Sequence record: MH571750.1
DNA from: Escherichia phage vB_EcoM-Ro111lw
Direction: 5' to 3' (one strand)
DNA length: 64,000 nucleotides
Positions 13,538 through 13,951 of the stretch are shown here, in pieces (positions within the stretch are counted from its first letter, which is position 1; each line of letters starts with the position of its first letter). The notes beneath the pieces were generated by a model, which saw only the letters and a list, made by a program, of their open reading frames with translations, was not told the origin of the DNA and made no database searches. The translations under genes were made by a program, and so were the position numbers.

Positions 13538-13951
13538 ATGAAAATATGCAGTACTTGCAGAATACCAAAAGATGAAAGCTTATTCCATAAGAATAAGAAC
13601 AAGAAAGATGGTCTTCAAAGTCAATGCAAAGACTGTGCAAGACTTCGTGATGCAAAGAGTTATCAAGCAAATGATAAAAGGAAAGAGGCTATTAAAAGCA
13701 CTCGTAACTTCAAGAGAGAGTATAACAAGACTCTAGCTAGAAGGTACAAAGCTTTATGCAAATGTCATATATGTGGTGAGAAAGAACCAGTTGCATTGGA
13801 TTTACACCATACAGACCCTTCCCAGAAAGATTTGAATCCTGCATCACTTTATTCATACTCCACAAAAAGATTAAAAGATGAAATCAGAAAGTGCATTGTC
13901 TTGTGCGCTAACTGTCACAGAAAAGTACATGCTGGTATCATAAAAGTTTAA
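13538..13951 (+). CDS. HNH homing endonuclease with N-terminal zinc-binding CxxC pairs, inserted in the tRNA array
   Basis: C-terminal ...DLHHTDPSQKDLNPASL...CIVLCANCHRKVHAG is a textbook HNH (His-Asn-His) motif; N-terminus CSTCRIP...CKDCAR. Confidence 0.85.
   Translation: MKICSTCRIPKDESLFHKNKNKKDGLQSQCKDCARLRDAKSYQANDKRKEAIKSTRNFKREYNKTLARRYKALCKCHICGEKEPVALDLHHTDPSQKDLNPASLYSYSTKRLKDEIRKCIVLCANCHRKVHAGIIKV

Follow-up and report, generated by a model that had tools for sequence, protein, structure and literature searches.

Why does a nuclease gene lie between two tRNA genes of an Escherichia phage, and is it a settled member of the tRNA array or a mobile insert? Homing endonucleases shape gene survival when related phages co-infect a cell, and a nuclease in a tRNA array would bias the inheritance of the neighbouring tRNA genes, which in phages counter codon mismatch and tRNA-cleaving host defences. 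Here we analysed a 64,000-nt stretch of Escherichia phage vB_EcoM-Ro111lw (MH571750.1), hereafter the window. The best explanation for its open reading frame (ORF) at 13538-13951 is, with a probability of roughly 0.8, a free-standing HNH homing endonuclease gene (HEG), that is, a selfish 422-bp insert in the 6-7 nt spacer between tRNA-Gly and tRNA-Thr.

The window phage is a Felix O1-like myovirus (Felixounavirus), and a 3.2-kb query around the ORF matches 274 phage records, nearly all of them Ounavirinae of Escherichia, Salmonella, Shigella or Citrobacter. ARAGORN places 26 tRNA genes, all on the + strand, at 10867-16535, and both ARAGORN and Rfam put the ORF between tRNA-Gly and tRNA-Thr, exactly as a preliminary description of this DNA had stated. 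The features of the locus are as follows.

12278-12306, + strand: sigma-70-like promoter, TTGACA-17-TATAGT (consensus scan, 11/12 matches)
13449-13523, + strand: tRNA-Gly(UCC) with encoded CCA, left neighbour (ARAGORN; Rfam RF00005, 59.6 bits)
13524-13537, + strand: left junction AATTAAGGTGTGAT, identical across all 12 occupied alleles (junction alignment)
13530-13951, + strand: 422-bp segment missing from empty alleles (BLAST against the contig L104; spacer lengths)
13538-13951, + strand: HNH endonuclease ORF, ATG to TAA, 137 aa
13547-13636, + strand: predicted N-terminal Cys4 zinc-ribbon-like module, C4, C7, C30, C33 (conservation, AlphaFold2 model, weak Hpy99I profile match)
13763-13930, + strand: predicted HNH (beta-beta-alpha-Me) core with the second Cys4, C76, C79, C123, C126
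13953-14029, + strand: tRNA-Thr(UGU), 'type A' allele, right neighbour (ARAGORN; Rfam, 51.5 bits; haplotypes)

The ORF is the orthologue of Felix O1 ORF47 (Felix01p093, NP_944871; 98.1% DNA identity), for which the RefSeq label is already "HNH endonuclease"; the Felix O1 genome paper reports "six copies" of HNH homing-endonuclease homologues, with no further analysis (PMC3185647). Its ATG lies 14 nt past the CCA end of tRNA-Gly, and 1 nt separates its TAA from tRNA-Thr. Within the left junction, the initial 6 nt agree with the AATTAAT spacer of empty alleles, and the AAGGTG is a Shine-Dalgarno-like element supplied by the insert, the ends of which are ambiguous by 4 nt (alternative 13526-13947) because TTAA is present at both. 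A promoter and terminator scan found no site dedicated to the HNH ORF, with regional counts no higher than in shuffles, and the site at 12278-12306 is the nearest strong sigma-70-like promoter upstream of it on the same strand. Since an Rfam scan of the region returned tRNAs only, and no group I intron or other structured RNA, the ORF does not lie within an intron. Nor is it a chance ORF, given its match to PHROG 2255 (E=4.7e-41) and synonymous changes that far exceed non-synonymous ones between copies. No paralogue or remnant was found elsewhere in the window, where phmmer against all ORFs and tblastn with 120 family proteins matched only 13538-13948.

What kind of protein does this gene encode? 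The match to PHROG 2255, which is labelled 'HNH endonuclease', is full-length (residues 1-134), and the Pfam HNH model (PF01844) aligns with residues 76-132 at 17.4 bits (E=0.0049), below its gathering threshold of 21.4 bits; at E≤0.01 that model matches just 16 of 50 family members. Judging from these sequences, the family is a divergent HNH branch that the Pfam model fails to capture. Nine cysteines (C4, C7, C30, C33, C76, C79, C119, C123 and C126) and four histidines (H90, H91, H127 and H131) are invariant in 50 of 50 homologues, down to 34% identity, and N125 is kept in at least 90%. The CANCH...H motif (C123-A-N125-C126-H127...H131) and the N-terminal CxxC...CxxC (C4, C7, C30, C33), both singled out in the preliminary description, are thus present and, N125 aside, invariant. 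This pattern of conservation points to an N-terminal Cys4 zinc ribbon, a second Cys4 strapping the catalytic element, and an HH...N...H set, with H90, H91, N125, H127 and H131 as the candidate catalytic residues.

The AlphaFold2 model is confident (mean pLDDT 95.7) and consists of a pair of beta-hairpins, a long helical linker spanning residues 31-74, and a core of strand-strand-helix order (E87-91, E119-123, H124-131). All elements of the His-Me finger catalytic signature, namely a general-base His, a structural Asn, a metal-binding His and the beta-beta-alpha-Me element, are found. The model resembles beta-beta-alpha-Me nucleases best, albeit weakly, and Foldseek returned nothing significant; in the PDB, sequence searches with the single protein and with the profile matched the LtrA En domain and McrA best, though marginally, and the zinc region of Hpy99I gave a weak profile match to the N-terminal module. 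Taken together, sequence and model identify the protein as a predicted, divergent member of the HNH superfamily. Several GenBank records name the gene 'endonuclease VII', and PHROGs with that label match the protein at ~1e-10; Endonuclease_7 (PF02945) gave no Pfam match at E≤1. GIY-YIG families were absent from its Pfam and PHROG matches, and its likeness to SegB and other GIY-YIG homing endonucleases is functional and positional only.

We then asked how the gene is distributed. Rather than standing at a syntenic position in all relatives, the ORF is covered by 14 of the 253 phage records that match the surrounding tRNAs (~5%; about 11 distinct phages), the other 239 being empty, and alignment with relatives that lack the insert, as had been suggested, yielded the empty Gly-Thr junction. 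The carriers are Felix O1 (three records, including FO1a), EcoM2, LF82P1, LF82P2, SP3, PHB11, S19cd, SP22, pEC-M719-6WT.1, BPS15Q2 (two records) and SFPB (genus Mooglevirus). They span at least three named species and a second genus, and even a single ICTV species, Felixounavirus wV8, includes a phage with the gene (SP22) and one without it (wV8). In empty alleles the Gly-Thr spacer is 6-7 nt long (AACAAT, AATAAT or AATTAAT), compared with 429 nt in the occupied state. Among 25 further Felixounavirus-like IMG/VR contigs, 1 was occupied and 24 were empty, in a sample anchored on an exact 30-mer at the tRNA-Gly end that hides variation there. When the window is compared by BLAST with the empty allele of L104, an IMG/VR contig, the alignment is broken at positions 13529 and 13948, and 4 nt (TTAA) overlap at the break. 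The flanks are near-identical, at 99.2% across the 257 nt to the left and 98.5% across the 2112 nt to the right, which makes the gene a clean insert of 422 bp.

Salmonella phage ST11 (L004 1361-1740) has a 202-nt junction duplication around an internal HEG fragment, in the order tRNA-Gly, AACAAT, first 58 nt of tRNA-Thr, HNH nt 109-236, last 19 nt of tRNA-Gly, AACAAT, full tRNA-Thr. Either a remnant was rearranged here, or the assembly has merged HEG+ and HEG- genomes of a mixed population into a chimera.

The history of the gene was compared with that of its surroundings. Across 37 alleles, no carrier-private SNP was found in tRNA-Thr or in the 157 nt upstream, and carriers and non-carriers share identical flanking haplotypes. 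Upstream, in the tRNA-Ala region, the carriers represent two haplotypes or more, with 18-20 differences in 157 positions (~11%). A neighbour-joining tree was built from the conserved gene (185 aa) that lies 0.7 kb downstream; with 11 of its 29 taxa being carriers, it requires at least nine gain or loss events, against a mean of 8.97 for shuffled labels, so that the placement of carriers is random. Among ten phages with the main variant, the HEG differs by 2.5% and the neighbouring gene by 5.5%, the HEG being the less diverged in 44 of 45 pairs; for synonymous-codon differences the values are 5.8% and 12.8%. The lower divergence of the HEG implies a more recent common ancestry, i.e. horizontal spread. 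A second variant (BPS15Q2, SFPB) is ~16% diverged on a backbone that is just 5.6% diverged. Synonymous and non-synonymous codon changes stand at 10:1 in S19cd and 34:20 in BPS15Q2, and the gene is, by this sequence measure, under purifying selection. Eleven of 12 full-length copies are intact, the SFPB copy has a +1 frameshift, and ST11 retains an internal 128-nt fragment only. Invasion, maintenance and decay can all be seen, as the classical life cycle of a HEG would have it. A patchy occurrence in close relatives, precise empty-site alleles and a history decoupled from the neighbouring gene and flanking genome are what is expected of a HEG, and they bear out the earlier suggestion of a free-standing mobile element.

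A T-loop SNP in tRNA-Thr (A57 versus G57), which a first alignment of five sequences offered as a self-immunity mark, was rejected because tRNA-Thr haplotypes are shared by carriers and non-carriers among the 37 alleles. Two weak associations, both uncorrected for phylogeny, concern the same tRNA: type A is present in 12 of 12 carriers and type B in 9 of 25 empty alleles (Fisher p=0.018), and one tRNA-Thr haplotype is weakly linked to the HEG (5/12 versus 2/25, p=0.025), which would be a slight hint of biased inheritance or co-conversion. The type B tRNA-Thr might be a refractory target, or simply mark a different lineage.

The array around the insert is itself highly polymorphic. Types A and B of tRNA-Thr (window 13953-14029) differ at 27 of 77 positions, the forms of tRNA-Ala (13367-13442) at ~18, and both tRNA-Ala and tRNA-Leu(tag) (window 13200-13277) come in 2-3 forms; tRNAs beside such divergent cassettes are near-identical (loci L088-L111). 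Recombination has made the array a mosaic down to the level of single genes. Another HNH gene (150 aa, PHROG 10822) ends 1 nt before tRNA-Leu(tag) in SP22 (L118 710-1162) and in L104 (8033-8485) and is missing from the window (compare 13113-13199); because L104 combines it with an empty Gly-Thr site, the two HNH genes assort independently. Other relatives within PHROG 2255 sit elsewhere in the array, namely Felix O1 ORF45 (L001 444-836) and a gene like wV8 gp50 (L012/L092 about 3470-3870; wV8 27883-28284), 48% identical to the window protein, which stops 13 nt short of tRNA-Ser(tga). Neither gene is in the window (compare 12615-12853). The Felixounavirus array thus contains at least four polymorphic and independent HNH insertion sites. 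A further indel polymorphism is an 80-aa ORF (PHROG 14202; window 14378-14620, + strand), located between tRNA-Arg(acg) and the 185-aa membrane-protein gene and seen, among the fetched relatives, only in the window and SP3. Two database entries also drew attention: the tRNA-Ser(tga) of Felix O1 called by ARAGORN (L001 1070-1159; record 26629-26718) is unannotated in RefSeq and partly overlapped by the annotated 'ORF46' CDS, and GU169904.1, 'Staphylococcus phage SA1' (147 kb), has a 94% identical Felixounavirus tRNA region and is probably a chimeric or contaminated entry.

Is the position beside a tRNA peculiar to this phage? A profile search of 1.84 billion representatives returned 686 clusters (50% identity) at E≤1e-30 and 26,079 at E≤1e-10, and tblastn found relatives in 455 phage records, which include enterobacterial, Pseudomonas, Klebsiella, Vibrio, Streptomyces and Mycobacterium phages, crAss-like and jumbo phages, and cyanophages. 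For the genomic niche we sampled 82 loci encoding relatives 35-61% identical, some of them near-duplicates, so that the statistics are not fully independent; the comparison with random placement, in addition, assumes a background of 10%. A tRNA lies within 2.5 kb on either side in 54 of the 82, and 40 have at least three tRNAs, which agrees with the earlier remark that tRNA clusters are recurrent insertion sites, as does the literature on other families (PMC2330249, PMC13096335, PMC5966550). At 32 of the 82 loci, a same-strand tRNA of almost any isotype starts no more than 20 nt past the ORF or overlaps its end. An overlap of 10 nt recurs, since the reading frame runs on across the 7-nt acceptor strand and terminates at the TAG that corresponds to the conserved U8-A9-G10 of the tRNA; the same overlap is annotated for mycobacteriophage PegLeg gp102 and tRNA-Met, and for an HNH gene and tRNA-Gly of cyanophage S-RIM50. 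Of 37 ORFs with an HNH motif, 28 overlap the next tRNA or leave at most 20 nt before it (median -8 nt), versus 24 of 97 for the other ORFs of the same arrays (median +216 nt; p=1e-7), a difference which argues that the flush junction is more than compactness. The HNH family prefers phage tRNA arrays and lies flush with, or overlaps, the 5' end of the next tRNA. Many of the top-scoring family representatives are long (up to 848 aa), with 2-14 separate matches to the 137-aa module (e.g. P0121, P0122, P0136 and P0256), and are either tandem zinc-ribbon/HNH arrays or fused gene calls.

These data invite a broader and quite tentative reading, which we put forward as a possibility rather than as our expectation: that the window gene belongs to a very large HNH lineage which crosses phyla, is specialised for tRNA genes in general and drives tRNA shuffling. 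Such enzymes might recognise generic tRNA-gene features, as SegB does; RNase P maturation would strip the U8-A9-G10 stop codon from the message and throttle nuclease synthesis; and breakage of tRNA genes would drive the shuffling, gain and loss, or amplification of cassettes, from enterobacterial phages to actinophages and cyanophages.

Other accounts of the locus have to be weighed against homing. The gene could be an ancestral accessory gene that has been repeatedly deleted and encodes an immobile housekeeping nuclease, such as an endonuclease VII-like resolvase or a packaging HNH. The GenBank names, the endonuclease VII PHROGs at ~1e-10 and the occupation of one site in two genera would all fit, but a resolvase or packaging nuclease is not expected to be missing from 95% of close relatives, and independent deletions are not expected to leave a clean 6-7 nt spacer again and again. 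Moreover, 44 of 45 pairs show the HNH gene to be younger than its backbone neighbour, it is randomly distributed on that neighbour's tree, it lacks a Pfam Endonuclease_7 match, and terminase or portal genes are not adjacent. We consider this account very improbable, and give equally little credence to the view that a former homing endonuclease is decaying into an inactive remnant, which general recombination carries along. Degeneration does happen at the site, as the low population frequency, the SFPB frameshift and the ST11 fragment attest; against this, all but one of the 12 full-length copies are intact, every catalytic residue and zinc ligand is kept, and synonymous changes dominate, by up to 10:1 among close copies.

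An unlikely account, though less so than these two, is that of a domesticated nuclease whose breaks in tRNA genes drive amplification or cassette exchange, evading tRNA-targeting defences, with homing being secondary. SegB of T4/T6 does exactly that and is statistically associated with tRNA genes across phages (PMC13096335), and Cluster M mycobacteriophage HNHs have been proposed to generate diversity in tRNA repertoires (PMC5966550). The present family is likewise concentrated in arrays beside many isotypes, the Felixounavirus array is pieced together from allelic tRNA cassettes that diverge strongly, and the gene is subject to purifying selection. However, tRNA amplification is not seen in the window, where each isoacceptor at the HNH site is single, and 95% of relatives lack the gene; domestication would, in any case, be compatible with homing. 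A counterpoint to homing itself is that the gene stays at a frequency of ~5%, with no sweep, and given Felixounavirus mosaicism general recombination alone could scatter any accessory gene.

How might the homing endonuclease gene operate? It is probably transcribed within a polycistronic tRNA precursor, possibly from the site at 12278-12306, and would be translated from the insert's own Shine-Dalgarno sequence into a protein in which a zinc-ribbon-like module is predicted to be joined through the helical linker to a beta-beta-alpha-Me nuclease core. During co-infection, the enzyme would nick or cut the empty allele of a relative at or near the Gly-Thr junction, by analogy with T4 SegB/SegE/MobE and I-HmuI, and recombinational repair from the HEG-carrying genome would, on the same analogy, transfer a copy of the gene, along with nearby markers, to the recipient. 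Because flanks of identical sequence are found in carriers and non-carriers alike, the carrier most likely owes its protection to the insert, which would split the target, and not to flanking SNPs. As has been proposed for SegB, the flush downstream tRNA may tie the 3' end of the mRNA to RNase P processing, which would truncate it right at the stop codon (in relatives, before the stop codon) and probably keep expression low. Because no polymorphism is linked to the HNH gene, the comparative data do not reveal the target site, and we found no report of cleavage, nicking or homing by the window enzyme in the literature searched.

The novelty of the locus is low, since RefSeq already carries an annotation for the gene and clear precedents exist for such elements. 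What is new is modest: a quantitative case for mobility at the Gly-Thr site, with a perfect empty-site allele, and the family-wide architecture across phyla of genes flush to a tRNA with the U8-A9-G10 stop codon. Its polymorphic HNH sites, together with the many empty alleles already sequenced, make the Felixounavirus array a natural system suited to the study of target choice and of how tRNA processing limits HNH expression. Felix O1-like phages serve in Salmonella typing and biocontrol, and marker exclusion among cocktail components has some practical relevance.

A close functional parallel is SegB of T4 and T6, a GIY-YIG homing endonuclease in a tRNA cluster that brings about preferential inheritance of the tRNA region (PMC2330249), targets the T-psi-C motif GGTTCRANTCC (PMC2330249, PMC13096335) and was reported in 2026 to amplify tRNA and anti-defence loci, with a statistical tRNA association across phages (PMC13096335). 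In each case a free-standing nuclease gene lies within a phage tRNA array and is missing from close relatives; in each, the ORF end abuts the downstream tRNA, so that mRNA truncation by tRNA maturation is expected, and the window family, too, associates with many isotypes. Low expression through such truncation was put forward earlier for segB and the T5 enzymes (PMC2330249). The two differ in that the window protein combines HNH with two predicted Cys4 zinc sites, whereas the GIY-YIG fold and chemistry are unrelated, and in that the target, double-strand cleavage, homing and amplification have been demonstrated for SegB, while the window enzyme is a predicted nuclease.

Phage T5 offers a second parallel, with the F-TflI/II/IV endonucleases and hegA-D lying among its tRNA genes (Akulenko et al. 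2004, as relayed in PMC2330249). Here, too, HNH-type nuclease genes are interspersed among phage tRNAs, and hegD, hegC and the hypothetical T5.069 (L121 4398-4979, 6023-6607 and 9007-9525) overlap downstream tRNAs by 23, 14 and 24 nt, much as members of the window family do. As candidate homologues, hegC, hegD and T5.069 were rejected, being unrelated to the window family, and the T5 overlaps therefore indicate that running into the next tRNA is convergent among unrelated array-resident ORFs. T5 hegA has the HNH core alone in common with the window protein (hhalign probability 75%, E=2.4e-5), with no N-terminal zinc ribbon, and the proteins of T5 are larger (193-227 aa).

Mycobacteriophages provide actual relatives. 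HNH genes are reported to be the most widespread CDS of mycobacterial tRNA arrays (PMC5966550, PMC6409571), and for those of Cluster M a role in diversifying tRNA repertoires was suggested (Pope et al. 2014, as relayed in PMC5966550 and PMC6409571). PegLeg gp102, from Cluster M, belongs to the same protein family (tblastn, 37.6% identity over 96% of the query, E=1e-13) and shares the architecture, its ORF overlapping the next tRNA by 10 nt, although host phylum and phage family differ.

Structurally, the best if weak matches are Hpy99I, T4 endonuclease VII and the small phage HNH nickases Gme HNH and GVE2 HNH, which have a beta-beta-alpha-Me core stabilised by Cys4 zinc sites, an arrangement also predicted for the window protein. 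T4 MobE and I-HmuI employ the same HNH catalytic chemistry, and MobE is likewise free-standing, but their DNA-binding modules are different and their genes are not tRNA-associated; no sequence similarity to either was detected beyond the HNH motif. By analogy with these two enzymes, the window protein likely nicks or cuts near its insertion site, with recombination-dependent copying to follow. Judged by these parallels, it appears to work like SegB and the T5 enzymes, yet it stands outside their families.
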